From: Syntrophorhabdaceae bacterium
Lineage (GTDB): Bacteria > Desulfobacterota > Syntrophorhabdia > Syntrophorhabdales > Syntrophorhabdaceae
Length of the DNA: 64,000 bases
NCBI GenBank assembly: GCA_963665295.1
Contig: OY762209.1
Span: 512,001 to 576,000 of the forward strand
Direction: 5' to 3'
How positions within the stretch are numbered: position 1 is the stretch's first letter; every line of letters begins with the position of its first letter. Shown here one piece after another: positions 6,001 to 30,669 of this stretch. A program made the position numbers and the translations under genes. Below the pieces are notes generated by a model, which worked only from the letters and a program-made list of their open reading frames with translations, did no database searches and was not told the origin of the DNA.

Positions 6001-9000
6001 CCATTGGTCATTGTGAGAGTGGTGGTATATGTTCTTCCGTTGACTTGCAAATTTCCGCTGGATGGGTTGGTTGTTCCGATTCCGACGTTGCCATTAGTTG
6101 GAGCTAGCAGAACATTAGTCCCATTAACCTGCCATCTATAAACTAAGTTTGTCTGATCGTATAAACCAAAAGTTGAACCGCCTATTTGAAAATTATAAGT
6201 ATTAGCTGAGGATCTTTGGAACTGTAAGGCATTGGATGTGCTTGAATATATATCTAGCATCGATGCTGGATTCGTCGTTCCGATTCCGACGTTGCCGCCA
6301 CTGGGTTGCAGTAACATATTGTAGGCGGTCGCGGTGCCGTCGATGCGTTGCACTTGTTGGAAAACATCGCCGGTAGCCAAACCTCCAACTAACAAGCCAT
6401 GACCGGAACCGACGGTCACTCCAAGCGACCCTCCATAAACGCCCAGCGCCGGTATGGTGTCCGTGCCCGTTCGGCGGATGTCTAATTTACCGAGCGGGTT
6501 CGTTGTCCCAATCCCGACGTTGCCGTCTGTTTTTATAGTAACTTTTGCCTCTCCAATAACACTTCCGGTTCCAATCTCCAATCTGTCTCCATCTGAATTA
6601 TCCATTCCCAAATGCCAGTATTGAGTTGCATAAGCACCCAAGACATATAACGGATCTCCTGCGCTTGCGCCTCCCACAAAATTGATAATTCTGGAACCTG
6701 AACTAACATTGGTATTATCAGTATTCATCAAATATTCATCCAAGTTTCCACCAACACTTGCCTTGCGAACATCAAGTAATCCTACCGGTGCTGTCGTCCC
6801 GATGCCGACGTTACCGCCTTGAGTAATTCTCATTCTCTCATTAGCATCAGCGTAACCGCCAGTAAAGAGTCTCAATAAGCCTGCCGCATCCGAAGCGGCG
6901 ATGTTAATTCCTCCTGTTCCATTAGCACCAATTTGCATAGCGCCTGCTTGATAAGCCCCATTGGTTGTGTATCCTGAACCATAATTATCTATAAACGCCG
7001 AGCTTGCATTTGTCTGTAAAAGCATTCTGCTATACGCCGCATTGCCAGTGTTTGGATTTTCAATTCCTAGTTCTGCTACAGAATTGGCGTTTTTCCAAAG
7101 ATAAAACATTTGCGCTGGCGCTGTCGTCCCGATGCCGACATTGCCGCCACTGGTAATTCTCATCGCTTCAGCCAAACTTGAAGTTGAATGTGTAGAAAAT
7201 GTCAAAGCAAAAGGATAACTTCCCCAAGCCTCTCTTACCGCTTTTATCTCGGCCCCGCTTGCACCAGTTTCTTGATAAAATTGAAGTGCCTGCGCTTGAC
7301 TGTAGTCACCGCTTGTTTGATTGCCATTTTGAATAGCGATATTGCCGTTCGCAACTTGTAACTTCGCCCCCGGCGCCGTCGTTCCGATTCCGACGTTGCC
7401 GTTATTTACATTTAGACCATTAACCCCTCCAGTAATTAACGAAAGAATATTAGCTCCGGCAGAACTCATACCAGTGTCCTCATCTCCTACAAATGAAAAG
7501 ACGGGATTAGTCGCCGAAGGTGCCTCACCTAAAAGGGTCGGGTAGGTAGCAATGGAACTGCCAAAGTAAGGATTACTGAATTTCCACATATCCGTTCCGG
7601 CAATTGAAATACGGAAATTATCATCGCTAGCTTCAAATATTCCGCTATCACCATCGCCGAATGCTAAAGTGGGAGTTGTCTGCAACGCTCCTGGTGTTTG
7701 ATTGAGATGTAATAATCCATTTGGACTGGTGGTCCCAATTCCGACTTTTCCGTAGGTATTTATGCGCATGGCTTCATGGAAACCCACGCCACCTTCATAG
7801 GTACTGAAAGCTAGTTGACCACTGTTGGCATAAAGCTCTCTGTAAGATTCAATTTTTGCCAAGTTATAGTTGCTGGAGGTTATATTGGTAAATAGTAATG
7901 TACCAGTAACAGAACTGTTTGAAGTTTGGTTGGCATGAATTGTAAGTGTTGGTTGCGTATCAAAAATTTCCAATTTTGAGGTTGGTCCCGTCGTCCCGAT
8001 CCCGACGTTGTACGAAGTTGAATCCGGATAAAGATTTGATCCAGTGAGAGTCCAAGCTCCTCCACTACTTGAGATATCTGACCATGATGCATTTCCGGAA
8101 GCATCAGTGGTAAGATAATATCCAGCCGATGCTCCATTGGTCATTGTGAGAGTGGTGGTATATGTTCTTCCGTTGACTTGCAAATTTCCGCTGGATGGGT
8201 TGGTCGTCCCAATTCCGACGTTGCCACTTTGGTTAATAACCATCACATCATTTCCACTAGATGCTCTAAATTCGAGTGCGCTACCTGTGGAAAGTTGATT
8301 TGTTCCTATGCCCCATCGGTATAAAGAATTGTCATAGAATGTAAGAGCAGCAGAACCACCGTTTGTAGCGGTTTCAATTCTAAGTCCAGTATCTCCGGTA
8401 CTGTTATATAAATGAAGTTTGACAGCCGGACTTGTCGTCCCGATTCCAACGTTGCCGCCGGTTATTGTGGTATTACCACCATTGTTTTCGAGAGCGATGC
8501 CTTTCGCTGAAATTGCCAAGTTCTCCCAAGCCCCACCCGTCCGGTCATACGACTGAATCTGTGAGCGAGTATTGCTTGTGGCATACCACATTTCAAGCCC
8601 CTTGCCCGCGGGCCAAGTCACCACGTCTCCGCGAACAAATAAACTTGAAAGTGCGTTTACTTGTCCATTAACTTCCAGCTTCGCCCCTGGACTCGTCGTC
8701 CCGATGCCGACGTTGCCGGCACTATTTACAACCATTGCCGATGTACCTGACCAATTCCCCAACCTCACACCATTAGTATCAGTCCATAATCCATAACCAG
8801 TAGCTTGTCCTGTAAGTTTAATTTGATTAGCCCCCGTTGAATATACTTCCAGTTTCCCGCCCGGACTTGTCGTCCCAATGCCGACGTTTCCGATTTCTGT
8901 TGCCAAAACCACTTGTCCTGCAGCTGCCAATGATTTGTAATTTCCTGCTCCGCCTCTAGTTCCCAACGCTAAAACATATCCATCAAAGCCAGGCCTACCT

Positions 9001-13776: not shown

Positions 13777-13834
13777 CAGGAAGAAGAAGACCGCCCAGGT
13801 TGTCCAATCTCTCAACAAAATCGCATAGGAGGTG
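13777..13834 (+). repeat. 58 bp imperfect direct repeat, copy 2
   Basis: See copy 1. Supplies the RBS for 13839. Confidence 0.9.
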
Positions 13835-13838
13835 AATC

Positions 13839-14057
13839 ATGAAAAAGCGCCGCCGTCAGAAGCCCAAGAAACTCATATGGATATTGGGCGCAGTATCCTT
13901 ATTTCTTCTCGCCGTTATCGCGTTCGGTACGACGATGATATCGTACTCGCTACACGAGATTCTTGTAACCGCTCAGGAAAATATCGCTTCATACGAACCC
14001 GAACACAAGGAACCCACCAAATTCAAAAGCATAGGAGGAATGAAATGGAAGAAATGA
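13839..14057 (+). CDS. Small membrane protein
   Basis: Basic N-terminus plus hydrophobic helix; GGAGG RBS. Confidence 0.6.
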   Translation: MKKRRRQKPKKLIWILGAVSLFLLAVIAFGTTMISYSLHEILVTAQENIASYEPEHKEPTKFKSIGGMKWKK

Positions 14058-14782
14058 TTATTCATCGGGGAGGAGAGATCGTTACCCGAGAACAGCTTGA
14101 CCTTATCAAGGTGCCGGATGCCACCGATTCATACATCCCGGTATCGCACTACCATCTGGCCGACAAACTGGTCGGCATATCGAAGGATATTCTCCGCGAT
14201 TACGTTTTGGTCGGAGAAAACTACGCCGTGGCCCGGCAGGGGAACCAGATGTTCGCGGCGCTCAAGTTCCAGCGGGACGAGTCGGACATGGCGCTCTCTA
14301 TCGCCTTCCGGAATTCTTACGACCGCTCGATGAGTCTCGGGATCGCTATCGGCGCTTCGGTCTTCGTCTGCGATAACTTGGCCCTTCAGGGCGACATCGT
14401 CATCATGAGGAAGCACACCAAGAATGTCTGGAACGAACTCGAAGATTTGGCGATTGCGACGCTCTACAAATCCCAGAAGACCTTTGAGCAGATCGTGGCC
14501 GACGCGGCCCTGCTCAAGAAGCAGCGCCTCAAGAACGACGAGGCGTTCATGTTCATGGGGATGCTCTTCGGCTATCACATCGTGAGCCCGAGACAACTCT
14601 CGATCCTCAAGGAAGAATGGCTTAGGCCGTCGCATACCGAATTCGAGGAAAGGAACATGTGGTCACTCTTTAACGCGACAACCGAAAGTCTCAAGAGCTG
14701 TCCGCCCGTCACCATCATGGAAAAGCACGGTCAGGCGTACAACCTGCTCACGCAAGGCAAATACCCGGCGCTCACCGCGTAA
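14045..14782 (+). CDS. DUF932-like protein
   Basis: AGGAGG RBS before ATG 14045; FRNSYDRS...GASVFVCDNL and WSLFNATTE motifs. Confidence 0.8.
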   Translation: MEEMIIHRGGEIVTREQLDLIKVPDATDSYIPVSHYHLADKLVGISKDILRDYVLVGENYAVARQGNQMFAALKFQRDESDMALSIAFRNSYDRSMSLGIAIGASVFVCDNLALQGDIVIMRKHTKNVWNELEDLAIATLYKSQKTFEQIVADAALLKKQRLKNDEAFMFMGMLFGYHIVSPRQLSILKEEWLRPSHTEFEERNMWSLFNATTESLKSCPPVTIMEKHGQAYNLLTQGKYPALTA

Positions 14783-14812
14783 TCCGATTTCTCGAAATTT
14801 AAGGAGGCCGTC

Positions 14813-15220
14813 ATGATCGTATCACGGGAAAGGGCGGAACTTTCTTCGCCCGCAGCAGCGGCAGGCCTCCTTAGGAAACTTCTCCGAAAGGAAGACTGCC
14901 TATCGAAAGACAGAGAGCATTTCTGGGTCATCACGCTCAATACCAGAAACCGGGTAAGGTTTGTGGAACTCATAAGCCTTGGGACGATGAACACCAGCGT
15001 CGTAGCCCCGAGAGAGATCTTCCGAAGGGCCATAATCAGGGGAGCGTCCTCGATCATACTGGGACACAACCATCCTTCGGGAAACCCTGAGCCCAGCCAA
15101 GAGGATTTGGAGATTACCAGAAGGATTGTGGAAGCCGGAAAGATCGTCGGGATCGAGGTGGTCGACCATATCATCATCGGCAAAAGCGATTATTCCTTCA
15201 AAGAAAAGGGGCTCATTTAG
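14813..15220 (+). CDS. radC: RadC-like JAB domain protein
   Basis: DREHF...PREIF...HNHPSG.PEPS.ED...DHIII motifs. Confidence 0.92.
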   Translation: MIVSRERAELSSPAAAAGLLRKLLRKEDCLSKDREHFWVITLNTRNRVRFVELISLGTMNTSVVAPREIFRRAIIRGASSIILGHNHPSGNPEPSQEDLEITRRIVEAGKIVGIEVVDHIIIGKSDYSFKEKGLI

Positions 15221-17436: not shown

Positions 17437-17464
17437 ATTATATACCGTACGTATTAAATGTCAA
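17437..17464 (-). promoter_or_regulatory. Sigma70-type promoter TTGACA-N16-TATAAT
   Basis: tgtcaa at 17459-17464 and attata at 17437-17442. Confidence 0.6.
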
Positions 17465-17528
17465 CCAGAAATTGTAGACAGCTAACTGCCGAAAAGAGAA
17501 CAATAAGCGCCTTTACTGAATTATTGTC

Positions 17529-17557
17529 TTGACAAAGATTCTTATTGTATAGATAAT
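17529..17557 (+). promoter_or_regulatory. Sigma70-type promoter TTGACA-N17-GATAAT (divergent)
   Basis: ttgaca at 17529-17534 and gataat at 17552-17557. Confidence 0.55.
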
Positions 17558-18417: not shown

Positions 18418-18837
18418 ATGGACTCACTTGTACACGAAACAAATGGAAGACTGGTTATGCTCGACCTTTGGGGATGCGATTTTGAGACGCTCAATAATTT
18501 CGCATCTCTTTCGAGTGAGGCAAAAGTGGCAGCCGAAAAGGCGGGAATGAATGTTCTCGCAATTTCCGTTGTGCCTTTTGTGCCGCAGGGGTACAGCATA
18601 GTCTTGACTCTAAGTGAATCACACCTCACTATCCACACCTCTCCCGAACAGGGGTATGCGGCTATCGACGTCTTCACCTGCGGGCACGGAAAACCTCACG
18701 TTGCCGCGAACCATTTACTGGCAATTCTCAAACCCGGCCAGATTCTTGCGAAAGTAATCCAAAGAGGGGAGCAGGCTCCGGCAGGCGCAGAGGGCTTTAA
18801 TGGAAATTTTCAGTCCGGGAGCACCCGCCATGCTTAG
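18418..18837 (+). CDS. speD: S-adenosylmethionine decarboxylase proenzyme (pyruvoyl-dependent family)
   Basis: PQGYS...LSESHLTIHTSPEQGYAAIDVFTCG (ESH self-cleavage site); AGGAGG RBS. Confidence 0.9.
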   Translation: MDSLVHETNGRLVMLDLWGCDFETLNNFASLSSEAKVAAEKAGMNVLAISVVPFVPQGYSIVLTLSESHLTIHTSPEQGYAAIDVFTCGHGKPHVAANHLLAILKPGQILAKVIQRGEQAPAGAEGFNGNFQSGSTRHA

Positions 18838-19399
18838 TGGCCAACTCACTCGCTTGAGACCTCTGGAAGATAAGGACTTTGCCTACTACTACTCGTGCAT
18901 GGACAATCCCGACTTGGCCGGAGTTGTCTTGGGAGACGCAGTCCCCTCTCCAAGGGAACTGACCAAGAAGCTGCTTCAAAAACAGGACGACCTCCTCCTT
19001 ACGGTAGAAACCTTATCGGGTACGCCAGTAGGTTTTTGCTTTCTCCGCAACATGCACCCCATTCACCGCTTTGCCGAGCTTGAACAATTCTTTATCGGAA
19101 ATCCCAGAGACCGCCGTCGTGGACACGGAGAAGATGCCATCCGGACGCTCACTCGCTACTGCTTTAGCATCCTCGGACTCAATCGAGTCTGGCTCATAAC
19201 CTATGCTTACAACTTCTCTGCAATACGCTTCTATGAAAAATGCGGTTTCTCGAAAGAAGGCGTGCTCAGACAGATTCAATTCACAGGAAGGGAGTATCAT
19301 GACGGGGTCACCATGGCCATCTTGCAGCAGGACTGGATTGCTATGCATAAAAGACACCGGTCACCGCACGAACCATCACCGATTGGGGTATCCCGTTGA
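18830..19399 (+). CDS. GNAT N-acetyltransferase (RimJ/RimL/SpeG-like)
   Basis: LRPLE...RRRGHGEDAI...LGLNRV.L...N..AIRFYEKCGF.KEG.LR. Overlaps the speD stop. Confidence 0.9.
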   Translation: MLSGQLTRLRPLEDKDFAYYYSCMDNPDLAGVVLGDAVPSPRELTKKLLQKQDDLLLTVETLSGTPVGFCFLRNMHPIHRFAELEQFFIGNPRDRRRGHGEDAIRTLTRYCFSILGLNRVWLITYAYNFSAIRFYEKCGFSKEGVLRQIQFTGREYHDGVTMAILQQDWIAMHKRHRSPHEPSPIGVSR

Positions 19400-19812
19400 C
19401 GGATCAGCAAATCAACCTTTTTCGATCCAAGCAGTCGGACGATTGGGCCACCCCCAAGTGGCTCTACGACCAACTTGACGCGGAATTCCATTTTGACCTC
19501 GACCCTTGTCCCCTCAACCCTACCTTTGACGGGCTTAAAATCCCCTGGTGCGGAAACGTGTATGTAAACCCTCCGTACAGCAGGGTCCGCGAATTTCTCG
19601 CCAAAGCCCACGAGGAACTTAGGGCCGGACGAGCCCGGACGGTCGTGTTCCTGGTGTTCGCGAACACTGATACGGATTGGTTTCACACCTATGTCTACCA
19701 TCAGGCTGAGATTCGATTCCTTAGAGGCCGGATCAAATTTGTGGCCCCGGGCAAGAACAACTCCGCCATGCGGCCAAGCATGCTCGTTATCTTCAGAAAC
19801 AGAATCTCCTAA
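19396..19812 (+). CDS. Phage-type DNA N6-adenine methyltransferase (Dam, PF05869-like), short
   Basis: DDWATP...FDLDPC...DGL..PW..VYVNPPYS...TDTDWF...IRFLRGRIKF. TTGA overlap with the GNAT stop. Confidence 0.88.
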   Translation: MTDQQINLFRSKQSDDWATPKWLYDQLDAEFHFDLDPCPLNPTFDGLKIPWCGNVYVNPPYSRVREFLAKAHEELRAGRARTVVFLVFANTDTDWFHTYVYHQAEIRFLRGRIKFVAPGKNNSAMRPSMLVIFRNRIS

Positions 19813-19961: not shown

Positions 19962-20531
19962 ATGGAGATTTCAAGAAATGCTTATCCGTACCAGACACTG
20001 GCGATTTTCATCGACTACCACAACTTCGAGGCTTCTTTGAGGGACGAGGGCCTGCAGGTAGACCTCTTGCCCTTGAGGGAGTACCTGGCCGGAGGCAGGC
20101 AACTGCTGGAGACATTCGTGTTTGTCGGCTTCAACCCCAACAACGCTCACGAAGACGGACAGCTCCATCGGTTCTTGCGAGTGAACGGTTTTCTCGTACG
20201 GACTAAGCTGGCCAAGGTAAGGCCTGATGGTTCCTTGAAATGTGATCTCGATATCGAGATGGCTTTGTCTGTGGTCGATTACGTGACTCGGAACAGACTG
20301 GACACCGTGCTCCTCGTGACTGGCGACGGGGACTTCTCTCCCCTTGCCTCGTGGCTCCGGATGAGAGGCGTCCGGGTAGAAGTGGCTTCGCTAGAACGCA
20401 GTATGTCCCATGAGCTTAAGGAGTCGGCAAACGGCTACATTGACCTCCGTGAAGCCATCGAAGAAATCGAGGCAGGACGGGGAGAACTCATAAGAGAGGA
20501 GGTGAGAACCTATGGCAACGGCAATTATTAA
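19962..20531 (+). CDS. NYN (LabA/DUF88, PIN-like) domain protein
   Basis: IFIDYHN, KCDLDIEMA, LVTGDGDF.PL, GVRVEV, S.ELKESA..YIDL; AGGAGG RBS before ATG 19962. Confidence 0.9.
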   Translation: MEISRNAYPYQTLAIFIDYHNFEASLRDEGLQVDLLPLREYLAGGRQLLETFVFVGFNPNNAHEDGQLHRFLRVNGFLVRTKLAKVRPDGSLKCDLDIEMALSVVDYVTRNRLDTVLLVTGDGDFSPLASWLRMRGVRVEVASLERSMSHELKESANGYIDLREAIEEIEAGRGELIREEVRTYGNGNY

Positions 20532-20718
20532 TGGACGGCGGGTTGACATTCCCTCCACGGCAACGGATGACGATATTCGTCAGGCCGGAGGAATTCGTCC
20601 CGAGAGGACCCTCATCAAACGGGAGAGGCACGGGAACTTCGTGATCCAGCGCGGGTCAAGGACGAATGTCAAAGAAGGTGATGTGTTTGTTGATTCACCG
20701 AAAAGGATCAAGGGTTAA
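20512..20718 (+). CDS. Putative ubiquitin-like (beta-grasp) protein ending in Gly
   Basis: 68 aa; IINGRRVDI...VKEGDVFV pattern; C-terminus RIKG; GGAGG RBS; sits immediately before the E2 and E1 genes. Confidence 0.75.
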   Translation: MATAIINGRRVDIPSTATDDDIRQAGGIRPERTLIKRERHGNFVIQRGSRTNVKEGDVFVDSPKRIKG

Positions 20719-20770
20719 ATCACAACGGAGGGCCGGGCAACCCTGGCCCTCCCCTTAAAGGAGGAGACGT

Positions 20771-21298
20771 ATGGCAGAATTTTTGAATTCGTTGTTCAGA
20801 GGATTATTCGGCAGTCCGTCTGAAGCACCCCGGCAGGACACTGCGTTACCCGGAAGACATCCGGTCCGTTCCATCCGGAACGAAAGGCTTCTCAATGAGA
20901 TCATGATGATCGCCCCGAGATTCAGCCAGAACGGAGGGGTGTACTACGACGAGCACAACTTCGACTGGATCATGATTCCCAAGTACGCCCTGCCGGAACG
21001 GTGGGAGGAGAGATGGTGTAAGCTCCTTATTATACCCCCCGCAGGCTATCCGAGCATGCCTCCTATCGGCTTTTATCTCAACCAAAAATTTCACCTCAAA
21101 ACGGGTGGCCACGACCCTCACAACACCAGCACCGCTTACCATGGGGCACCCGACCTTCTGCATAGTGGCTGGCACTGGTACTGCGTTACCGTGGCAGACG
21201 GGCCGGGCGGCTGGCAGCCATCGGTCGATTACCGCGAAAAGGACAATCTCTGGACGTTTCTTAATATGGCCAGAGAAACCCTTACCAACGACTTTTGA
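20771..21298 (+). CDS. Prokaryotic E2/UBC-like protein
   Basis: YALPERW...LLIIPPAGYPSMPPIGFYL...GWHWYCV...W.P...DNLWTFL. Confidence 0.8.
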   Translation: MAEFLNSLFRGLFGSPSEAPRQDTALPGRHPVRSIRNERLLNEIMMIAPRFSQNGGVYYDEHNFDWIMIPKYALPERWEERWCKLLIIPPAGYPSMPPIGFYLNQKFHLKTGGHDPHNTSTAYHGAPDLLHSGWHWYCVTVADGPGGWQPSVDYREKDNLWTFLNMARETLTNDF

Positions 21299-21309
21299 AG
21301 GAGGCACAA

Positions 21310-22809
21310 ATGAAATACAGGATCATTCTCACCAAAGGCATGGCGGAGGAGTTGAAGAAGCACCTCCTTACAGACCGACGCAAGGAACAGATGGCTGTCA
21401 CCTTGTGCGGAGTGAACCGCCTCAAGAACGAAACCAGATTACTCGCCAGACACCTCATACTCTTTCCACCCGAGGCGTTCCAAACCCAGTCTTCGGCCTA
21501 CCTCGAACTGGACCAGGGGGTCCAGCGTCAGATTCTTGGATTGGCCGCAGCGGAAGGGCTGTCGCAGATTGATTGGCACAGTCACCCCGGCGACACATCG
21601 TGCATCGGCTTTTCCGGCGTTGACAACCACAATGAAAGTAAGCTCGCGGCCTACCTTCACGAAAAGATCCCCGGTACACTCTACGGGTCCGTGGTAGTGA
21701 ACCGGAACGTCTTCGACGCCAGGATTTGGCAGGTCGAAAAAGAAAGTATCCAGACAAGACCCGTAGAATCGGTTCGGTGGGGGGACTTCAACGATGCAAG
21801 CCCTGTCTCTTCCAGAGGCGCCAGGCCCGAGGCAATCGAGGAACAGTACTCCCGGCAGGTAGCCGCTTTCGGAAGCGTCTTGCAGACGAGGTTGAGGAAA
21901 TGCAAAATCGGGGTCATCGGGGTTGGCGGTTTGGGAGCGGTCGTTGTAGAAATGCTGTCAAGACTTGGCTCTGACACCTGGATGCTTGTGGACGACGATG
22001 TCGTCGAAATCAGCAACCTTAACCGCCTTCCCGGATCGTCCCGCAGAGACGCCTATTACCGGACTTTAAAGGTCAATGTCGCTCAAAGGAATATCACGAA
22101 AGCCAATCCTTACGCCGCCATTACGGTTTTGCCTTTAAGTGTCACAAATGAGAGGGTCGTCCAGTCCCTCAAGTCTTGCGACCTTTTGGTTGTAGCCACA
22201 GACAACAACAGCAGCCGTCTTATCGCCAATCGCCTCGCCGTGCAATATCTCATTCCCCTTATTCACATCGGCGTCAACATCGACGTGGACGATAACAGGA
22301 CCATAACCGACATGAGCGGAGAGTACGTGTTTCCGCCTCTAGGCGAGTGGTGCCTTCACTGCGCCGGGATCATTGATGGTCAGATGGCCGGATGGGAATT
22401 GGCGGATGAAGGGTTGAGGAGTGTGCTTCGGGAGCGGGGATATGTGAAAGACACACCGGCCCCGGCGGTCTATCATCTGAACACCGTGATGGCCGCCCTC
22501 GCGGTGGCGGAGATACACAACTTTGTCTCCTCTTACAAGCCCGTCCGGCGTTACCTTACCTACGATGAACTCAAAGGAGAGCTTCTGCCTCTTGAAGTCT
22601 CGAATGAACTTCGCTGCCCGGTGTGCGACAACGAAGAGGGATATCTCGGCCTTGGGGACCTAGAGCCCTTGCCGGATTATACGGGGAGGACAAGAACGAT
22701 GCCAAGTACCGATGCGTTTGACGGAGACGGAGAGATGCGCATTTTGCCGGTCAACAATCCCGACAATTCCAACGAAGTTGAGCTTGTGGTCAAAGAGGAG
22801 ACCTTGTGA
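21310..22809 (+). CDS. JAB/MPN peptidase - ThiF/E1 adenylyltransferase fusion
   Basis: N-terminal E...HSHP...FSGVD (JAMM). C-terminal GVGGLG, DDDVVEISNLNR, ATDN, and CLHC/CPVC Zn sites. Confidence 0.9.
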   Translation: MKYRIILTKGMAEELKKHLLTDRRKEQMAVTLCGVNRLKNETRLLARHLILFPPEAFQTQSSAYLELDQGVQRQILGLAAAEGLSQIDWHSHPGDTSCIGFSGVDNHNESKLAAYLHEKIPGTLYGSVVVNRNVFDARIWQVEKESIQTRPVESVRWGDFNDASPVSSRGARPEAIEEQYSRQVAAFGSVLQTRLRKCKIGVIGVGGLGAVVVEMLSRLGSDTWMLVDDDVVEISNLNRLPGSSRRDAYYRTLKVNVAQRNITKANPYAAITVLPLSVTNERVVQSLKSCDLLVVATDNNSSRLIANRLAVQYLIPLIHIGVNIDVDDNRTITDMSGEYVFPPLGEWCLHCAGIIDGQMAGWELADEGLRSVLRERGYVKDTPAPAVYHLNTVMAALAVAEIHNFVSSYKPVRRYLTYDELKGELLPLEVSNELRCPVCDNEEGYLGLGDLEPLPDYTGRTRTMPSTDAFDGDGEMRILPVNNPDNSNEVELVVKEETL

Positions 22810-24302
22810 TATTCGAGATGCTCGAAAACGCTGTCATCAGAGGTCTCAATTCTCTCACCTCGCCTAAGCGGGTGAAGAAATCGAGGGAGCCCTCCCGGAT
22901 ACTCATCGGGAGGGCCGCCCACCCTTATCATCCGGAACACTGGGAAGAAATATCGCTCGACGTCGAAAACCTTCTCCGTCACCTGTACTGCTTGGGCGGT
23001 ACGGGCATGGGTAAGACGAAACTGCTGGAGTTTATTATCCAACGTATAATCCTCGCCCACCACGGTTTTGCCCTTATCGATCCGCACGGCGATCTTACGG
23101 AGAACATCATCAATTTTCTCTGTCACAACAAGACTCAATTCGAGATAGACGAATTGGGAGAGCGGGTCATCCTCATTGAACCCTTCGACCGGGAATGGGC
23201 CATCGGATTCAACCCCTTGGACTCGGATGAACCATTCGCCGCGTCTCTCGGTCTCGTGGATATCTTCCGCCAATTTTGGGGCGACAGTTATCGGGGACCG
23301 AGGATGGACGAGCTTCTCAGGAACAGTCTCGCGACCCTCTCTGAGAACAAGCTGACCCTTCTTGAGACAAGACCTTTACTCACCCATCCAGAATTCAGAG
23401 CAAGGCTCGTTAAGAACGTGTCCTTCGGCGAAGTGCGGGATTACTGGAATCATCGGTATAATCCTCTTTCGGAAAAAATGCAGGCCATGTACCGGGAACC
23501 CGTGCTCAACAAAATCACCGCATTCATAACGGACCCGACCATTTACCGAATTCTATGCCAGACAGAAAGCACGGTGAATTTCCGTCGGGCCATGGATCAA
23601 GGGAAATGGATTCTCCTCAATCTCAGCAAAGGACATCTGGGCGAGAACGTGAGGCTTCTCGGTACCCTGTTTCTTTCCAAGCTCAAACAAGCCGCGTTCT
23701 CCAGAATCGATATACCGGAAGAGAGCAGACGTCCGTTCTTCGTCTTTGCCGACGAATTTCAGAGCTTCATGGGGGATGCGGGGACAATTGAAACAGTACT
23801 CTCAGAAAGCAGAAAATTCCGTTTGGCCATTTTTATGGCAAATCAGAATTTGGGGCAGATACCTGCGCAGCTGCGATCAGCCATTTTAGGGAATGTTGGA
23901 GTGGAAATTTTCTTCCGTCTCTCCAACCAGGACAGCGTTTTAGTCTCTTCGGAAATGAGCCACGGCGACAAGCATCTCATCGAAAAGCGGCTGATCGATT
24001 TCAAGGTTGGAGAAGCGTATCTCAAGGTCAAGGGCCAGAAAGCGCGGCTCTTTAAGACTATCCATGTGCCTTCGCTCAGAGTTCCGGAAAGAATGATTGA
24101 ACCACTGAGGGTAGCCTCTTTCCGGAACTGGGCCGCGCCGGTCAGCAAAGTGGAGGAAGAGATCGCGGAGCGGAGAGGAATGTGGGAAGAGAGCGGGATA
24201 GACAACGATTGCTCCCCAAGGGAAACGCAAGGGGCAATTGTAAGGACCGATGATGTTCTTCCTGTCCGCGACTCCTTCGAGGAAGGACAAAGTGAATGGT
24301 GA
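22806..24302 (+). CDS. VirD4/TraD/HerA-like coupling ATPase
   Basis: Walker A GGTGMGKT, IDPHGD, Walker B FFVFADEFQ, ESRKF...NQ...ILGNVG..IFFR. GTGA overlap with the E1 stop. Confidence 0.85.
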   Translation: MIFEMLENAVIRGLNSLTSPKRVKKSREPSRILIGRAAHPYHPEHWEEISLDVENLLRHLYCLGGTGMGKTKLLEFIIQRIILAHHGFALIDPHGDLTENIINFLCHNKTQFEIDELGERVILIEPFDREWAIGFNPLDSDEPFAASLGLVDIFRQFWGDSYRGPRMDELLRNSLATLSENKLTLLETRPLLTHPEFRARLVKNVSFGEVRDYWNHRYNPLSEKMQAMYREPVLNKITAFITDPTIYRILCQTESTVNFRRAMDQGKWILLNLSKGHLGENVRLLGTLFLSKLKQAAFSRIDIPEESRRPFFVFADEFQSFMGDAGTIETVLSESRKFRLAIFMANQNLGQIPAQLRSAILGNVGVEIFFRLSNQDSVLVSSEMSHGDKHLIEKRLIDFKVGEAYLKVKGQKARLFKTIHVPSLRVPERMIEPLRVASFRNWAAPVSKVEEEIAERRGMWEESGIDNDCSPRETQGAIVRTDDVLPVRDSFEEGQSEW

Positions 24303-25155
24303 GACCAGAACCAGTAAGTGGCAGAGGACCAAAAATCCGAAGCCCATCTTTCTTCAGGAAAGAGATCAGGAGATAGTCGCCAGGGTCTATGACTTTGGCT
24401 TCCTCACCAGGCAACAAATACAGCGCCTCATTGATTTCAACTGTACAACCAGGGCCAACATACGACTCCGGAAGCTTTTTGATCACGGTTACCTTTTAAG
24501 GCGATTTCTTCCGGTAGTAAAAGGATCATCTCAGGCTCTGTACTTCCTGGGTCCCAAGGGCATAGACCTTGTCTCGGAAAGAACGGGAATCGATGCGGCT
24601 TTAATCAAGAAAAGGCAGGGGAACCATTACGAGCGCAAGGAGTTGTTCCTTGACCATGATCTTCTTCTCAATGATGTGAGGATCGGCGTCTATGATGCTT
24701 TGAAGAAATCTCCCGGCACGGAACTTGACCATTGGGTGAATTACACCGATTGTCTTCAGGAGTGGAATGTCCTCAATCCGAAATCGGGCCGCCAAAACAA
24801 AGTGGCCCTCAGACCTGACGGATATTTCCGCTACTTCTCTGCAGACAAGCTCTTCGGATGTTTTGTGGAGGTGGACAGATCCACTATGAGCAACAGCCGG
24901 TTTCAGTCCAAGGTGAAGCTGTATCTTGAATATATCCGCTCGGGACTCTATCCGGCAAAATTCGGGCTCCAATTCTTCCGGGTTTTGGTAGTGACTGAAA
25001 CAAGGCAGCGCCTTCTTAATCTCAAGTCAGCCACTGAGCAACTCACCGACAAGGTATTCTGGTTCGCGCTGGCCAACAACCTCGTGGAGGGAAATGTCTT
25101 CGAGTCCATCTGGGCGAGACCGGGCAAACCGGGAACCTTCAGTCTGCTGGAGTGA
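24292..25155 (+). CDS. Replication-relaxation family protein
   Basis: LQERD...FLTRQQI...RLRKL...HDL...RPDG...FVEVDRST...KVKLY...FRVLVVT. Probable GTG start at 24292. Confidence 0.85.
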   Translation: MNGETRTSKWQRTKNPKPIFLQERDQEIVARVYDFGFLTRQQIQRLIDFNCTTRANIRLRKLFDHGYLLRRFLPVVKGSSQALYFLGPKGIDLVSERTGIDAALIKKRQGNHYERKELFLDHDLLLNDVRIGVYDALKKSPGTELDHWVNYTDCLQEWNVLNPKSGRQNKVALRPDGYFRYFSADKLFGCFVEVDRSTMSNSRFQSKVKLYLEYIRSGLYPAKFGLQFFRVLVVTETRQRLLNLKSATEQLTDKVFWFALANNLVEGNVFESIWARPGKPGTFSLLE

Positions 25156-25158
25156 GTC

Positions 25159-25617
25159 GTGAGATATTGCCCCCGCTGCCATCACTTCAATCCGGGCAAT
25201 CTCCCGATCTGCCATTTCTGCGGAGCCACCTGGTATGTAAGGCTCTGCCCGAGAGGTCATGAGAATCCCCCAAGCGCCCAATATTGCGGGACATGCGGAT
25301 CAACGGATTTGAGTGAGACGGCGGGCCGCCGACCATGGCTTTTGATTGCCTTTAAATTATTCCTGTGGCTCCTCGTCGGTCTCTTCGTTTACTCACTAGT
25401 CTTTGGCGCTGGCCCCATTTCAGGCAGTCAAATCTTTGCCTATATCTTCTCTCTCGCCTTTCCCCTCTGCCTCCTCCTTGTTGGCCTCTGGCTTCTGCTC
25501 TCGCTTCTGCCGAAGTCTGTAGGGCAGTCAGTTCGCAAGCTGATGAGGCATGTGCTGAGGCTGGCTGGCTTGGCAGCATGGGGTTTGTTGAAGCTGATAT
25601 GGAGGATATTGAAATGA
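25159..25617 (+). CDS. Double zinc-ribbon membrane protein
   Basis: CPRC, CHFC, CPRGH, CGTC followed by hydrophobic helices. Confidence 0.8.
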   Translation: MRYCPRCHHFNPGNLPICHFCGATWYVRLCPRGHENPPSAQYCGTCGSTDLSETAGRRPWLLIAFKLFLWLLVGLFVYSLVFGAGPISGSQIFAYIFSLAFPLCLLLVGLWLLLSLLPKSVGQSVRKLMRHVLRLAGLAAWGLLKLIWRILK

Positions 25618-25842: not shown

Positions 25843-26196
25843 ATGGAATTCTTGACGGTTGACGAGATTGCACGGATGCTCAAAGCGAGTCGCGAGTTCG
25901 TTTACAAAAACAGGAGCCTCTTCGGAGGCATCAAAGTGGGAAGGCTCGTGAGATTTCCAAAAATAATTTTTGAGAAGATAATCGAGGAGGTGATAGGAAG
26001 TGGTGGAGAAACACGGCAACAAGTGGAGGTACGATTTTCTGAAGGACGGGACGAGGTACAGAGCGGGAGGATTCAGGAGCAAAGCCGAAGCTATCGAAGC
26101 CGAGGCAAGAGCAAGAGCAGGAGCAAAATCGATAAATACGGACTTGCTAAAGCTTATGAACTCAAGGCTGGAGGATATCCAGATTCGGAGGACTAA
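25843..26196 (+). CDS. Excisionase-like HTH protein
   Basis: AGGAGG RBS; MEFLTVDEIARMLK.S...VY...IKVGRLVRF. Overlaps the integrase start. Confidence 0.8.
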   Translation: MEFLTVDEIARMLKASREFVYKNRSLFGGIKVGRLVRFPKIIFEKIIEEVIGSGGETRQQVEVRFSEGRDEVQSGRIQEQSRSYRSRGKSKSRSKIDKYGLAKAYELKAGGYPDSED

Positions 26197-26344
26197 ACTC
26201 CATTTCTGGGAAAACAACAAACTATTCAAAGAACTGATGCAGCGTTGGGGGAACCTCCCCAAGATAACCACAGATGATGTGGAAAAATATCTTAACGAAA
26301 TAGCCAAGAAGTCTAAGCCTATGGCAAACAAATATCTTAGACTA

Positions 26345-28019
26345 GTCTCCATCCGGAAACCCCCATTTTCGAGCAAGCCCCCGGTCTATTGCCAGGGTGG
26401 GCGCTCAGCCGTCCGGTGATTCCGTCATCCCTTTTCGGATTTCACTCCATCGGGCCCGTTTTCCCCAGAGTCAGGGCGTAGCTCACCCTTGTCCCCTTGA
26501 GAAAATAGTCTTCTCTCATCATGAGGCCATCCTGATGCGGGCGATGACGAGAAGATTGTAGGAGACGATACTGGAGAGCACGTACCGGGCAAACCCTTCC
26601 CATCCTGTCCACGTCGCCCGGTCAAGGCCGAAGGACCGTTTCAATGTGGAGATGCCTGCTTCAATGCCCGCCCGGAAGTTCCTGAGCTTCTTGTAGACCC
26701 AGGTGCTCTTTGCCATGTCGAGGATGGAGAGCCCCCTCTTTCTGGCGAAGACGGCATCCTTGATATGGTTCTCCTTCGCATAGGCGAGGTTCTCTTTTGA
26801 GGCAAAGCCCCCGTCGGCCGTCACTTGGCGAGGCATCTTCCCGTACCACTCCTTATGCTGCTCAAGGAGGGATTGATACTGGTCGGTATCAGCGGGGTTG
26901 CCCGGGACGATGAGACACCCGATGATCATGGTGGAGCGTCCTCCTGTAAGGAACACCTTATGGCCGTACTCGGTATCCCTCCTCCCCTTCACGATGATGT
27001 CCGTGTGGTCCTCGAAGAAAGAGACGATCTTCTCGGAGGCGGGGACCTTCTCGTTCTTGAAGACTCTCCGGTCGGTCTGGTCGATGACCTTCCCGAGTAT
27101 GCCCACGGCGCGTTCAAGTCTCCGGGCAAGCTCGCGGGCAGCGAAGGTGTCCATGAGATTATCGCCCTCGTAGGGGATGAGTTCGGTGATCGCCTCTTCG
27201 GCATATCCCTTCACGAGATTCGCATAGTGGAGGAGGTCCTTGTAGGCGCTCTTCCGTGTTCTGTCGTTCTTTGCATTGAGGATCGTCATGAGCTTCTTCT
27301 TGGCTACTCTCCTATGGTCACTGTAGGCATACCGGGGCACGGGAGCAAGCTCCTTCCCTTCGGTGAGTAACCGGGTAATGACGCGGATGCCGTCCACGAT
27401 GAGCGATGAGTCGGTGGGGTGGTGGATGTTGGTCTCCACCGTGGTGGAGTCTACTCTTACCACGCGGCCGGATTCTATCTTCTCCTTTACCGCGTAGCGG
27501 TTTACTTCCTGAATGATCGCCTCCCAGGTTTCTTCCCGTATCGCCTTTATGTTCTCCTGAAGGACCGATTTGGAGGGGTACTGTCCCATCTCCAATCTCG
27601 CGAAACTGCGGAGTGCGTCGGAGTCTTCCATGTGGAAGGCAAGCTCTTCATACGTCAGTTGGCGGTACTGCTTGAGTATGGCGATCCGGAGCACCTGTTC
27701 CGCGGTGAGCCCCTCTCTTCCCGTGTCGGTGCGACAGAAGGAGGTCATATCCCCGAAGACCAGATCCAGAAGGCGGGGATTGGCGTCTATGACCTTTGAC
27801 ATCTCCTGAAGCTCCTTTACAATAGAATGGCGCATCATGGGGGAGAAGAGACCTGTCTGGGGGTTGAATTTCTGGCGCATTCCGGAATCCTTTCTGAAGG
27901 CGTTAGGTAATGATATTGCCTTGTTACAACCATATTGTACCTCAGATGAGGGGCGAAACTCCAGGGGAATGTGGGGATTTGGGCAAATATTTCATGGGGT
28001 TAGGTTTCCGGATGGAGAC
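26345..28019 (-). mobile_element. Insertion sequence (ISNCY/IS5-like DDE), 1,675 bp
   Basis: Perfect 17 bp TIR gtctccatccggaaacc. 7 bp duplication tagacta at 26338-26344 and 28020-28026. Confidence 0.92.
26519..27880 (-). CDS. DDE transposase
   Basis: VRVDSTTVETNIHHPTDS, VTADGGF, RAGIEAGISTLKR. Confidence 0.92.
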   Translation of the reverse strand: MRQKFNPQTGLFSPMMRHSIVKELQEMSKVIDANPRLLDLVFGDMTSFCRTDTGREGLTAEQVLRIAILKQYRQLTYEELAFHMEDSDALRSFARLEMGQYPSKSVLQENIKAIREETWEAIIQEVNRYAVKEKIESGRVVRVDSTTVETNIHHPTDSSLIVDGIRVITRLLTEGKELAPVPRYAYSDHRRVAKKKLMTILNAKNDRTRKSAYKDLLHYANLVKGYAEEAITELIPYEGDNLMDTFAARELARRLERAVGILGKVIDQTDRRVFKNEKVPASEKIVSFFEDHTDIIVKGRRDTEYGHKVFLTGGRSTMIIGCLIVPGNPADTDQYQSLLEQHKEWYGKMPRQVTADGGFASKENLAYAKENHIKDAVFARKRGLSILDMAKSTWVYKKLRNFRAGIEAGISTLKRSFGLDRATWTGWEGFARYVLSSIVSYNLLVIARIRMAS

Positions 28020-28218
28020 TAGACTAATCAAGGCACTCTTTAATCACGGGATAAAGAGAAACTGGTTCATATTTAACCCATGCCACGGCATAGCGCCTTT
28101 CGGTATCGAGAAAAGAAAGAAGTATATCCCAACTTTTGAGGACATCGAGAAAGTAATCTCTCTTGCCAAAGAGGAACAGAGGAACTATCTCCTGGTGGTG
28201 GCTCTTACAATGGCTAGA

Positions 28219-30139
28219 CCGAAGTTCCCCCTGTGAAATCCCCCCAATATCACTCTATCCCGTTGAAATGACGGGAATAGGGTGATAATCATATCTTCTA
28301 CTTGTTGCCATGTAATAGTGCATTATGTACTTGACATGTAGGTAAGCTATTTGCTATATATGTTCCATGTACATCGAAAGCATCCCCAACCGCAACTCCC
28401 GGCCCGCCATCCTCTTGAGGGAGGCATGGAGGGAAGGCAAAAAGATAAAGAAGAAGACAGTCGCAAACCTCACTGATTGGCCGGAAGAGAAGATCGAGCT
28501 CTTGAGGCGTGTATTGAAAGGGGAGTCTCTCGTCTCTCCGAAGGAAGCCTTTAAGGTTGAGCAGTCTCTCCCCCACGGCCATGTGGAGGCCATACTCGGG
28601 ACAATAAAGAAGCTTGGCCTTGATACGGTCATTGCCTCGAAGCCTGGAAGGGAGAGAGACCTCGTAATCGCCATGATCGTGGAACGCCTCATCCACCCCT
28701 CATCGAAATTAGCAACTACGAGGCTCTGGCATACTACTTCGGTGGCGGAGGAACTCTCGGTTGCAGATGCCGATGAGGACGAACTCTATGATGCCCTGGA
28801 CTGGCTTTTGGCAAGACAGGAGCGGATCGAGAAGAAGCTGGCGAATAAGCACCTTACCGAGGGCTCGCTCGTGCTCTACGATGTGACGAGCAGTTACTAC
28901 GAGGGCCACACCTGTCCCCTTGCGCAGTTCGGCCATGACCGGGATGAAAAGGGAAAGAGGATCATCGTCTATGGAGTACTCACCGATCACGAAGGCCGAC
29001 CTGTTGCAGTTACCGTCTATCCGGGGAATACGGGCGATCCCTCTACCATTCCCGACCAGACGGCAAAGCTCAAAGAAAGATTCGGTCTCGATCACCTCGT
29101 CCTCGTGGGCGACAGGGGCATGCTTACGGAGACACAGATTACAAAGATAAAGGAGATGCCCGGCATAGGGTGGATATCGGCCCTCAGGTCTTCCGCCATA
29201 CGCGAGCTTGTGGGACAGGGGAGCATCCAGATGTCCCTCTTCGATACCCAGGACTTTGCGGAAATCACCTCTCCCGAGTATCCGGGGGAAAGGCTCATCG
29301 CTTGCTTCAACCCCCTTCTTGCCGAAGAGAGAAAGAGGAAAAGAAACGCGCTCCTCGATGTGACGGAAAAGAAGTTGTCCTCCATTGTACGGGCGGTCGG
29401 GAGAAGGACAAGGACGCCTCTTTCCGCAGCGGAGATAGGGAAGAAAGTCGGCGCGGTAGTCAACGATCACAAGATGGCGAAGCACTTTATCCTTACCATC
29501 GGAGACGGGTCCTTCTCATTCGCCCGGAACGAGGAGTCAATCACCGAAGAAGAAGCCCTCGACGGGATCTATGTGATCCGTACGAGTGAACCAGCCCTTC
29601 CTCCCGCCGATGTGGTACGGAACTACAAGAACCTTGCCCGGGTAGAGCGGGCCTTCAGGACCTTGAAGGGCATCGATCTTCTCGTCCGTCCCATTCACCA
29701 CCGTACCGAGGATCACGTGCGAGCCCACATCTTTCTCTGCACCCTCGCCTATTACGTAGAGTGGCATATGAGGGAGGCCCTTACGCCGCTGCTCTTCGAC
29801 GATGAGGAGCTTCCCCTCTCACGAACGACGAGAGACCCGGTAAAGCCCGCGGAGTCATCTTCTTCCGCAAAGAAAAAGAAGACCACCAAGCTCACCCCTG
29901 ACGGCCTTCCCGTCCAGAGCTTCCGTACCCTCCTTGCCGCACTGGGGACCCGATGCAAAAACCGGTGCAGGATGGTTTTGGACTCCATGGCCCCGGCCTT
30001 CACCCTTCTTACTGATCCGACACCTCTCCAGGCCCGCGCCCTTGCCCTCCTCGGACTGTAGCCAGTAACGGGAAATCAATTTCTGCCATAATCATTGGAA
30101 TATCAAGGTGATGGGTTAATATTGGGCGGGGAACTTCAG
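28219..30139 (+). mobile_element. IS1634-family insertion sequence, ~1,921 bp
   Basis: TIR ccgaagttcccc / ggggaacttcag. 6 bp duplication gctaga at 28213-28218 and 30140-30145. Confidence 0.9.
28367..30061 (+). CDS. IS1634-family transposase
   Basis: LYDVTSSYYEG, VGDRGM, VERAFRTLK...RPIHH...VRAHIFLC. Confidence 0.93.
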   Translation: MYIESIPNRNSRPAILLREAWREGKKIKKKTVANLTDWPEEKIELLRRVLKGESLVSPKEAFKVEQSLPHGHVEAILGTIKKLGLDTVIASKPGRERDLVIAMIVERLIHPSSKLATTRLWHTTSVAEELSVADADEDELYDALDWLLARQERIEKKLANKHLTEGSLVLYDVTSSYYEGHTCPLAQFGHDRDEKGKRIIVYGVLTDHEGRPVAVTVYPGNTGDPSTIPDQTAKLKERFGLDHLVLVGDRGMLTETQITKIKEMPGIGWISALRSSAIRELVGQGSIQMSLFDTQDFAEITSPEYPGERLIACFNPLLAEERKRKRNALLDVTEKKLSSIVRAVGRRTRTPLSAAEIGKKVGAVVNDHKMAKHFILTIGDGSFSFARNEESITEEEALDGIYVIRTSEPALPPADVVRNYKNLARVERAFRTLKGIDLLVRPIHHRTEDHVRAHIFLCTLAYYVEWHMREALTPLLFDDEELPLSRTTRDPVKPAESSSSAKKKKTTKLTPDGLPVQSFRTLLAALGTRCKNRCRMVLDSMAPAFTLLTDPTPLQARALALLGL

Positions 30140-30562
30140 GCTAGAGTGAGAGAGATTAACAACCTCAAATGGGAAGATGTTAACCTGGATGAAGGATACC
30201 TTGTCCTCAAGACGCGAAAAGCCAAGAACTCTGACGTGGTTTCGAGGAAAATTCCTTTAGTGCCGACTATTAAGAAGATACTCGAATCAATGGATAAGGG
30301 AAACGAGTATGTCTTTGTTAACCCTGTTACCAAAACCAGATACGATTACAGGGACAAGTTTCTCCCGAACCTTTGCAGGAAAGCGGAGGTACGGCCTTTC
30401 ATGTATCACTCACTGAGGCACTACGGAGCATCAAAACTCGCTCACTCTGGCGTACCCTTGACAGACATTCAAGAGCTTCTTGGCCACCAGAGAGCCACTA
30501 CCACCGATATATACCTTCAGAGCTTGAAAAACAGTCTGAGGGAATCCATTAACAAACTCGAC

Positions 30563-30583
30563 TTCCCCCAAAATTTCCCCCAA
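30563..30583. repeat. TTCCCCCAA direct repeat x2, candidate integrase arm-type sites
   Basis: Copies at 30563 and 30575, just inside the tRNA-side junction. Confidence 0.45.
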
Positions 30584-30595
30584 GACTAAAAGAAA

Positions 30596-30669
30596 TGCGC
30601 CCAGCAGGAATCGAACCTGCAACCTTTGGATTCGAAGTCCAGCACTCTATCCAATTGAGCTATGGGCGC
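30596..30669 (-). tRNA. tRNA-Arg(TCG), CCA not encoded
   Basis: GCGCCCATAGCTCAATTGGATAGAGTGCTGGACTTCGAATCCAAAGGTTGCAGGTTCGATTCCTGCTGGGCGCA folds as a cloverleaf. Confidence 0.95.

Follow-up and report, generated by a model that had tools for sequence, protein, structure and literature searches.

A Bub-related ubiquitin-like conjugation operon with a predicted cysteine-type E2 and a linked NYN ribonuclease gene on an integrated island of a Syntrophorhabdaceae bacterium

A 64-kb stretch of the genome of a Syntrophorhabdaceae bacterium (contig OY762209.1, positions 512,001 to 576,000; hereafter the window) carries a four-gene, 2.8-kb operon encoding, in this order, a NYN-family nuclease, a ubiquitin-like protein (Ubl), a protein of the ubiquitin-conjugating type (E2) and a fusion of a JAB peptidase to an enzyme of the ubiquitin-activating type (E1). 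The operon is real, conserved and uncharacterised, and its gene set has already been catalogued: a CRISPR-linked set of NYN, small beta-grasp protein, prokaryotic E2 and ThiF-like E1 is listed, with no mechanism given in the accessible parts of the work, by Altae-Tran 2023 (PMC10910872, Table S3 row 162 and Fig. 6D legend). The reading proposed here, to which I give about an even chance of being correct, is that of a variant of the Type I Bub (6E.1) conjugation pathway that lacks BubE, uses a cysteine E2 and has the NYN ribonuclease as its regulated output, the whole being a defence-type module of mobile elements and type III CRISPR loci. Labels such as L001 denote the loci fetched for comparison and G000 the genome of the window; its operon consists of the following features.

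19962..20531, + strand: NYN, predicted ribonuclease of 189 aa, LabA/DUF88-type PIN fold (Pfam NYN, E 2.4e-24)
20512..20718, + strand: Ubl, single beta-grasp domain of 68 aa with a free C-terminal Gly68 (RIKG), from an AlphaFold2 model and its structural matches
20727..20752, + strand: GC-rich RNA hairpin of 11 bp without a U-tail, between the Ubl stop and the ribosome-binding site of the E2
20771..21298, + strand: E2 of the Prok-E2_E/BubB family, 175 aa, with predicted catalytic Cys138 (WHWYC), from Pfam, fold and hhalign
21310..22809, + strand: JAB peptidase-E1 fusion, BubCD-like, 499 aa (Pfam ThiF and weak Prok-JAB; match to BubCD in the Protein Data Bank, PDB)

An initial annotation of this DNA had described four co-oriented genes of a Bub-type Ubl/E2/JAB-E1 architecture, the NYN gene overlapping that of a 68-residue protein ending in RIKG. 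The open reading frames, Pfam matches, structural models and recurring gene order bear this description out: all four frames lie on the forward strand, each behind a strong Shine-Dalgarno sequence of the GGAGG type, the NYN and Ubl genes share 20 nt, and, since the identical gene order is found again across many phyla, the locus is not a chance assembly. The structure predictions that the annotation had proposed as a check gave a beta-grasp for 20512-20718 and a UBC fold for 20771-21298, the closest structures to the products being BubA, BubB and BubCD. What it did not contain are the CRISPR link of the relatives, the change from Ser to Cys in the E2 and the earlier catalogue entry.

The frame of reference is the Type I Bub pathway, for which the accessible text of Ye, Gong, Chambers and Corbett (10.1101/2024.11.21.623953) gives JAB residues E28/H91/H93/D104, adenylation residue R227, E1 Y370 and E2 S333 helped by H335 and D299, with BubE in all Bub operons. 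The E2 of the window matches Pfam Prok-E2_E (E 1e-5), and its model (82 on the predicted local distance difference test, or pLDDT) has Citrobacter BubB as best match (Foldseek E 9.9e-5; Z 12.9, root-mean-square deviation, rmsd, 3.4, 126 aligned). Its motif WHWYC138 aligns on WQRWS of five BubB proteins from plasmid Bub operons (hhalign, probability 97.7-99.2), so that Cys138 occupies the column of BubB Ser333, and a hidden Markov model alignment to 9eae_C concurs. Among the 65 members of the clade this column holds Cys in 64 and Ser in one; in a wider set of 149 representatives from a search of 1.8 billion proteins it holds Cys in 137, Ser in 4, gaps in 4 and other residues in 4, often as C-x-H, which means that a broad Cys-type branch of the E2 family exists. 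Cys138 is predicted to be the catalytic residue. BubB Asp299 is replaced by Ile99 (Ile/Leu/Val in the clade) and BubB His335 mostly by Thr, as in Thr140 here (Thr/Arg/Gln/His in the clade), a loss of helpers that is to be expected if the nucleophile is a cysteine; conserved instead are D115 (63/65) and H117 (64/65). The pairing of a Cys E2 with a Tyr E1 is also seen in three distant Chloroflexi operons (L093-L095) and in one haloarchaeal plasmid operon.

Two further observations concern the same E2 family. A haloarchaeal operon on a Natribaculum luteum plasmid (L059:1474-4761) combines a Tyr-type JAB/E1 with a pair of Ubl-like and a pair of E2-like genes; one of these E2s has Cys-x-His, the other lacks it, and there is no BubE. 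Six proteins of 551-1138 aa (P0091, P0096, P0099, P0102, P0103 and P0144) have this Cys-type E2 domain at their C-terminus or close to it.

The Ubl yields nothing of note in Pfam, NCBIfam or PADLOC, and its sequence matches no PDB entry at an E below 0.06. Its model (AlphaFold2, alignment of 28 sequences, pLDDT 92) has Bub multi-ubiquitin proteins as best matches among 48,161 chains (9d59, Z 10.4, rmsd 1.6 over 67 residues) and superposes on BubA 9eav_C with Z 8.1 and rmsd 3.2 over 68 residues. R65, K67 and G68 are invariant (28/28 aligned). That the Ubl is a minimal single domain ending in Gly, as the annotation had stressed, holds for this copy; as a special trait it does not stand, one-domain proteins making up 40% of Bub Ubls according to the part of 10.1101/2024.11.21.623966 that was available. 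Furthermore, 21 of 46 related Ubls extend 1-14 residues beyond RxKG, and in L017 the Ubl is fused to the E2 (one gene lies between NYN and the fusion); a large part of the clade therefore requires a maturation step.

The JAB/E1 protein (Pfam ThiF, E 3.5e-35; weak Prok-JAB) has BubCD as its best PDB match (E 5.9e-32, residues 4-415). Its JAB motif, E26...H90-S-H92-P...S102-x-x-D105, aligns E26/H90/H92/D105 with BubCD E28/H91/H93/D104, and Y378 aligns with BubCD Y370 as well as with the Phe of the Y370F chain 9eav. E26, H90, H92, D105, the adenylation residue R239, the crossover Tyr378 and two CxxC motifs (348-351 and 436-439, a probable Zn site) are each kept in 32 of 32 full-length E1s, in all of which the crossover loop (352-396) is free of Cys. 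The E1s of Anaerolineae also bear long, low-complexity-looking C-terminal tails in which no domain was seen.

An E1 domain of the ThiF family, a set labelled ThiF plus ThiS in the earlier catalogue and an RNase as the only partner outside the cascade might befit a unit that conjugates no protein at all, namely a ThiF/ThiS-like sulfur-carrier or nucleic-acid-modifying unit, which would, for instance, load the RNA ends generated by NYN with sulfur or with the activated Ubl. This I hold to be very improbable: BubA, BubB and BubCD, the closest structures, are proven protein ligases, and no rhodanese or cofactor gene occurs among the neighbours scanned. Likewise, a conserved E2 with a nearly invariant Cys is not known to be part of sulfur relays, which also counts against it.

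BubE (PF20137, DUF6527) was not found in the genome of the window, which is a single contig estimated to be 98% complete (the control genome was positive), nor in five other carrier genomes. A local BubE profile, applied to 102 sequences, matched only the five canonical plasmid loci of Bub, of which four had seeded the profile, and left the other 97 unmatched; 29 loci of the clade reach at least 600 bp beyond the E1. No E3 was recognisable among the neighbours in a general Pfam scan, and the annotation's picture of an operon with neither gene thus persists, on profile scans for BubE and on that scan for the E3. Its further idea, that the JAB acts as deconjugase rather than maturase, fares less evenly: with BubE not found an erasing role is plausible, and yet its exclusive form is weakened by the tailed Ubls, by the Ubl-E2 fusion of L017 and by the JAB of BubCD being seen as a maturase, mainly or only so in the suggestion of the Bub authors (10.1101/2024.11.21.623953, accessible text).

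Two unusual loci may be recorded here. In L016 (2670-5596) a Ubl and a Cys E2 come immediately before cas2 and a CARF-HEPN gene; this locus lacks a JAB/E1 and has a sigma-54 activator upstream. In L001 a gene directly after the JAB/E1 (8972-9646) combines a weak bacterial HORMA match (E 1e-3) with a cold-shock domain.

The NYN protein scores 87 bits against a Pfam cut-off of 24.2 (PF01936) and is predicted to be a metal-dependent nuclease of single-stranded RNA (ssRNase), with D18, D97, D122 and D124 kept in the window copy and in 23-24 of 25 aligned sequences. In a scan with PADLOC profiles only, it matches PDLC01154 and, weakly, HEC-09, the Ubl and the E2 remaining unmatched. E2 homology retrieved 17 genome and 36 metagenome loci, or 52 after removal of L053, in which the contig ends within the E2. 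Of these, 34 have NYN upstream, 8 lack it despite at least 1 kb of upstream sequence, and 10 are uninformative; dereplication at 90% E2 identity (42 groups, window included) leaves 26 with NYN, 8 without it and 8 uninformative. The recurrence of NYN beside this E2 clade, for which the annotation had suggested a neighbourhood survey, is therefore seen in 26 of 34 informative loci. The NYN-less loci that have a full E1 belong mostly to a single clade, in which an NYN-bearing member is also found; the underlying E1 tree is a quick one without bootstrap and with an unresolved base, showing clades and not the order of events. No nuclease family that might replace NYN as effector was detected among the upstream genes scanned in NYN-less loci.

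Where the gene is present, it appears to travel with the cascade. NYN pairwise identities track those of E1 (Spearman 0.85, against 0.87 for E2 versus E1; 105 non-independent pairs from 15 loci). Of 72,556 plasmids, 81 match NYN and three match E2, and these three are the top three NYN rows, with the match about 1 kb from the E2. Along the same line, in 401 genomes of a class that I take to be Anaerolineae, 10 match the E2 profile, 5 of them strongly, and 7 match the NYN profile: all four strong NYN matches adjoin an E2, the three weak ones are in genomes without E2, and the fifth strong E2 sits at a contig edge. The cascade thus occurs without NYN, but no NYN of the clade was found without the cascade, which favours a NYN that needs the cascade. 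Complex prediction of NYN with JAB-E1, E2 and Ubl gave a score of 0.00 in two runs whose controls were not folded, and it is used neither for nor against binding.

The settings of the relatives are of two kinds. Counted over 54 rows (53 loci and the window, not dereplicated), genes for coupling proteins or Replic_Relax lie beside the operon in 13 loci (7 with NYN) belonging to two E1 clades, and CRISPR genes in 22 (19 with NYN); no locus has both, and 19, mostly on short contigs, have neither. The operon of the Anaerolineae clade is encoded on the strand opposite to that of the cas genes; it has cas6 on one side, next to NYN, and genes for TM-CARF, SAVED, Csx15 and type III-D Cas7 on the other. 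On three cyanobacterial plasmids (L073-L075) the order is NYN, a coiled-coil/transmembrane protein, Ubl, Cys E2 and Tyr JAB/E1, oriented with cas1/cas2; type III-B cas10 follows in two, and genes annotated only as CRISPR-associated in the third.

It may be asked, then, whether the cascade tags the proteins of invaders, as Bil does, with NYN as a co-inherited but independent accessory for RNA processing, be it trimming of CRISPR RNA (crRNA) in CRISPR loci or processing of the operon's own hairpin-rich mRNA. I consider this unlikely, though it has several facts on its side. The cascade persists without NYN in 8 of 34 loci and in L093-L095; Bil needs no E3 to tag the tail proteins of phages (PMC10557695, part of the source); the NYN of Bacteroides fragilis is described, in the accessible part of PMC11346440, as a self-sufficient, non-specific, Mn-dependent ssRNase proposed for crRNA maturation; and cas6 is the neighbour of NYN in Anaerolineae. 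Intergenic hairpins are also commoner in NYN-bearing loci. The RNA of 20719-20770, behind the Ubl gene, folds with -27.3 kcal/mol (z -3.6), and, of the 25 loci with NYN, 16 have a hairpin of z<-2 behind the Ubl, as against none of the 7 without NYN. On the other hand, the window's genome has no detectable RAMP gene (control positive in 5/14) and its CRISPR arrays are more than 600 kb from the operon, so that the module is kept here, NYN overlapping Ubl, without a type III CRISPR system; 7 of the 13 loci of mobile elements keep NYN with no cas gene in the locus; and the three cyanobacterial loci keep it without the hairpin.

The hairpin after Ubl may act as a stabiliser or an attenuator. Its interpretation as a specific sign of NYN-Ubl stoichiometry was rejected, for hairpins of z<-2 also follow NYN in 13 of 26 loci and E2 in 5 of 25, and the cyanobacterial loci have none. 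Scans for sigma-70 promoters and terminators performed at chance (6 versus 3.6 expected; 5 versus 6.5 expected). Upstream, a divergent pair of near-consensus sigma-70 promoters (12/12 and 11/12) at 17437-17557 precedes a run of helix-turn-helix (HTH), SAMDC, GNAT, Dam and NYN genes, in which an S-adenosylmethionine decarboxylase (SAMDC), a spermidine-acetyltransferase-like GNAT and a phage-type Dam methylase (18418-19812) are immediately 5' of NYN; SAMDC and GNAT precede NYN in L020 as well.

In the window the operon runs into transfer-type genes and towards the end of an integrated element.

from 22806, + strand: VirD4/TrwB-like coupling ATPase, its start overlapping the E1 stop by 4 nt (Pfam)
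24250-25155, + strand: Replic_Relax protein (Pfam)
25159-25617, + strand: double-zinc-ribbon membrane protein (Pfam)
30095-30589: Phage_integrase, interrupted by insertion sequences, just inside the island end (Pfam)
30596..30669, - strand: tRNA-Arg(TCG) (aragorn)

The 3' 43 bp of the tRNA-Arg gene (30596-30638) are repeated at G000 474681-474723, 68 kb to the left (blastn), and these repeats mark the ends of an island of about 68 kb integrated at tRNA-Arg. Together with genes of defence type within it (AbiEii, type III restriction-modification-like, SNF2, HerA and SIR2), they substantiate the mobile island that the initial annotation had surmised. E2 relatives were not found in 60 related genomes nor in 400 genomes of the same phylum; viral contigs contain no relative of the E2 or of JAB-E1 and 10 NYN matches at 24-37% identity, annotated phages a single partial ThiF match. 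Matches occur in 5 sequencing runs of 2 studies, with no RNA run among those listed.

Several features of the island deserve mention in their own right. The integrase is seemingly in three pieces (26000-26419, 27910-28236 and 30095-30589, assigned by reading), split by DDE transposase insertions at 26519-27880 and 28367-30061, and because of these two insertions the element may be immobilised. The left part (G000:C1:480000-494000; L054, L055) has AbiEii with an AbiEi-like gene, ResIII with an N6/N4 methylase, a SNF2 helicase and HerA adjoining SIR2. At 13832-15220 stand genes of the DUF932 and RadC-like JAB kinds, which are characteristic of mobile elements. A low-GC open reading frame of 4,646 aa (1-10622, - strand, continuing to about G000 508682) starts with a signal-like segment at the N-terminus and carries, near its C-terminal part, a domain of the Peptidase_S74 (endosialidase chaperone) family.

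The 4-nt overlap of the E1 stop with the coupling-protein start, the transfer genes flanking 13 of 54 loci in two E1 clades and a Replic_Relax gene near the distant Cys-E2 operon L095 would fit a module for maintenance or transfer of the element rather than phage defence, either an addiction system, in which a NYN toxin is silenced by continual tagging, or one modifying the coupling or Replic_Relax protein. That explanation is improbable, given that 22 of 54 loci and the three cyanobacterial plasmid loci are placed among CRISPR genes, and that none of the 22 has transfer genes. The AbiEii, restriction-modification-like, HerA and SIR2 genes of the island, and the CRISPR genes of those same loci, are counted as a defence setting in favour of a defensive Bub variant with NYN as output.

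How such a variant would work can be pictured in six steps. First, by analogy with the biochemistry of BubCD and BilC and with the residues intact, the JAB would trim Ubl precursors to the C-terminal Gly where they are tailed, no trimming being needed here. Second, the E1 would very probably, as BubCD does with Y370, adenylate Gly68 by means of R239 and capture the Ubl on Tyr378 as an aryl oxyester. Third, the Ubl would probably pass to Cys138 of the E2 as a thioester, instead of the Ser oxyester of BubB, giving a predicted mixed relay from Tyr oxyester (E1) to Cys thioester (E2). Fourth, the E2 would hand it to a Lys of the target with no E3, as in Bil and Bub. Fifth, and by a slight preference only, the JAB would double as the eraser, BubE being gone. 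Sixth, the activity of NYN would depend on the Ubl cycle. I infer both that the Ubl switches NYN and that the system serves defence; the likeliest form of the switch, put forward tentatively and at somewhat under an even chance, is that the Ubl restrains a non-specific ssRNase and that infection or stress shifts the balance towards RNA cleavage and growth arrest. Restraint by tagging would be likelier than activation because the CRISPR-associated NYN is active on its own (PMC11346440, accessible part). Two lysines of NYN are candidate tagging sites, Lys82 and Lys93, and Lys93 is at a distance of four residues from Asp97 of the active site.

A good deal weighs against this proposal. The eight NYN-less loci among the 34 informative ones mean that NYN cannot be the only purpose of the cascade, and no NYN gene adjoins the three more distant Cys-E2/Tyr-E1 operons L093-L095. 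The NYN subclade of the window has lost one usually conserved Asp, position 103 being Ser here and Asp in 24 of 25 aligned sequences, with Gly, Ser or Ala in close homologs. Lys93 is part of a KxD motif that NYN domains commonly have, and it may thus be conserved without being a conjugation site. The reciprocal test in Anaerolineae is partly circular, as three of the four strong NYNs were in the NYN profile, and it shows only that no orphan NYN of the clade turned up; moreover, the CRISPR link in Anaerolineae may stem from one insertion event, involving as it does one clade and an operon on the opposite strand to the cas genes. In published assays the JAB of BubCD left conjugates in place (10.1101/2024.11.21.623953, accessible text), and the CRISPR-associated NYN was dispensable for interference in E. 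coli and proposed as a crRNA trimmer (PMC11346440, accessible part).

The clade has a wider import. Bub pathways have been described as all-oxyester, as invariably accompanied by BubE and as lacking a known biological target, and the present clade departs from them in the E2 Cys and in BubE. An E1 that keeps its Tyr beside a Cys E2 is a direct test case for the switch between thioester and oxyester in ubiquitin transfer. An operon that has dropped BubE and gained a co-inherited ribonuclease supplies a Bub-type ligase with a concrete candidate for its substrate or effector. Finally, a unit of this size that occurs in the type III CRISPR loci of two phyla far apart, and here away from CRISPR, raises the question whether protein tagging feeds CRISPR or abortive immunity. 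A bolder version, which I regard as doubtful when taken whole, is that a hybrid Tyr-oxyester/Cys-thioester cascade, of a kind that the papers searched do not describe, gates NYN by reversible tagging, acts alone on integrative elements and was taken up separately by CRISPR loci of type III-D (Anaerolineae) and type III-B (cyanobacteria), in which it forms a protein-tagging branch of immunity, being an evolutionary intermediate between thioester systems (Bil, eukaryotic) and the all-oxyester Bub.

As to known systems, a literature search returned no account of a NYN-Ubl-E2-JAB/E1 mechanism or of a Cys-E2 Bub variant, the supplements of the Bub paper and of PMC10910872 being places that may bear on novelty; the parts available of PMC6546367, PMC11855584, PMC12409355 and PMC5499597 hold no relevant passage. 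Iyer et al. 2006 (PMC1779556) describe row 6e operons with a Cys-less E2, and in the accessible part of that article NYN is unmentioned outside the reference list. The set of Altae-Tran 2023 shares with the present operon its domains and, in the cyanobacterial and Anaerolineae relatives, the CRISPR link, a kinship judged by gene content and a 161-codon seed gene in the portion available; unlike it, the window copy is on an integrative element, has no fifth, membrane-protein gene (none lies between NYN and Ubl) and no CRISPR locus, whereas L073-L075 have both. The type III-B locus of B. fragilis likewise has a NYN-family RNase in a type III CRISPR context, yet its partners are those of CorA/NrN SAM-AMP signalling, with no Ubl cascade in the accessible description by which it was compared (PMC11346440). 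An assignment to Type II CBASS or Pycsar (Cap2-Cap3) was rejected, the PADLOC E1-E2 profiles matching only the adenylation domain (about 183-322) and no cyclase being present among the neighbours scanned.

Bil (BilABCD) also has a stand-alone Ubl, an E2 of the Cys type (a predicted role here), a JAB peptidase and no E3. It differs in having a separate JAB gene, an IAD-AAD-CYS E1 with a catalytic Cys and no NYN, whereas here a JAB-E1 fusion bears a Tyr; with the JAB fused to the E1, BubCD as best PDB match and a crossover loop without Cys, filing the operon as Bil was rejected. The likeness is closest to Type I Bub (6E.1), with which it shares a JAB fused N-terminally to the E1 and having the E-HxH-D active site, a crossover Tyr with no catalytic Cys in the loop, a beta-grasp Ubl with a conserved C-terminal Gly, a Prok-E2_E/UBC-fold E2, the absence of an E3 and the order Ubl-E2-JAB/E1. 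The differences are that the Bub E2 uses Ser333 with His and Asp helpers, in contrast to Cys138 without them; that Bub has the serine protease BubE (DUF6527), none being found here; that a dedicated NYN gene stands upstream; that no CapH/CapP or WYL regulator is seen beside the operon in the window; and that Ubl and E2 are separate genes as against the BubAB fusion, this last being a weak criterion because some BubE-bearing plasmid operons also have separate genes and the relative L017 is fused. With Cys in place of the E2 Ser and no BubE found, filing it as canonical Bub was rejected, and the operon is, as far as its sequence tells, not a member of Type I Bub but its relative.

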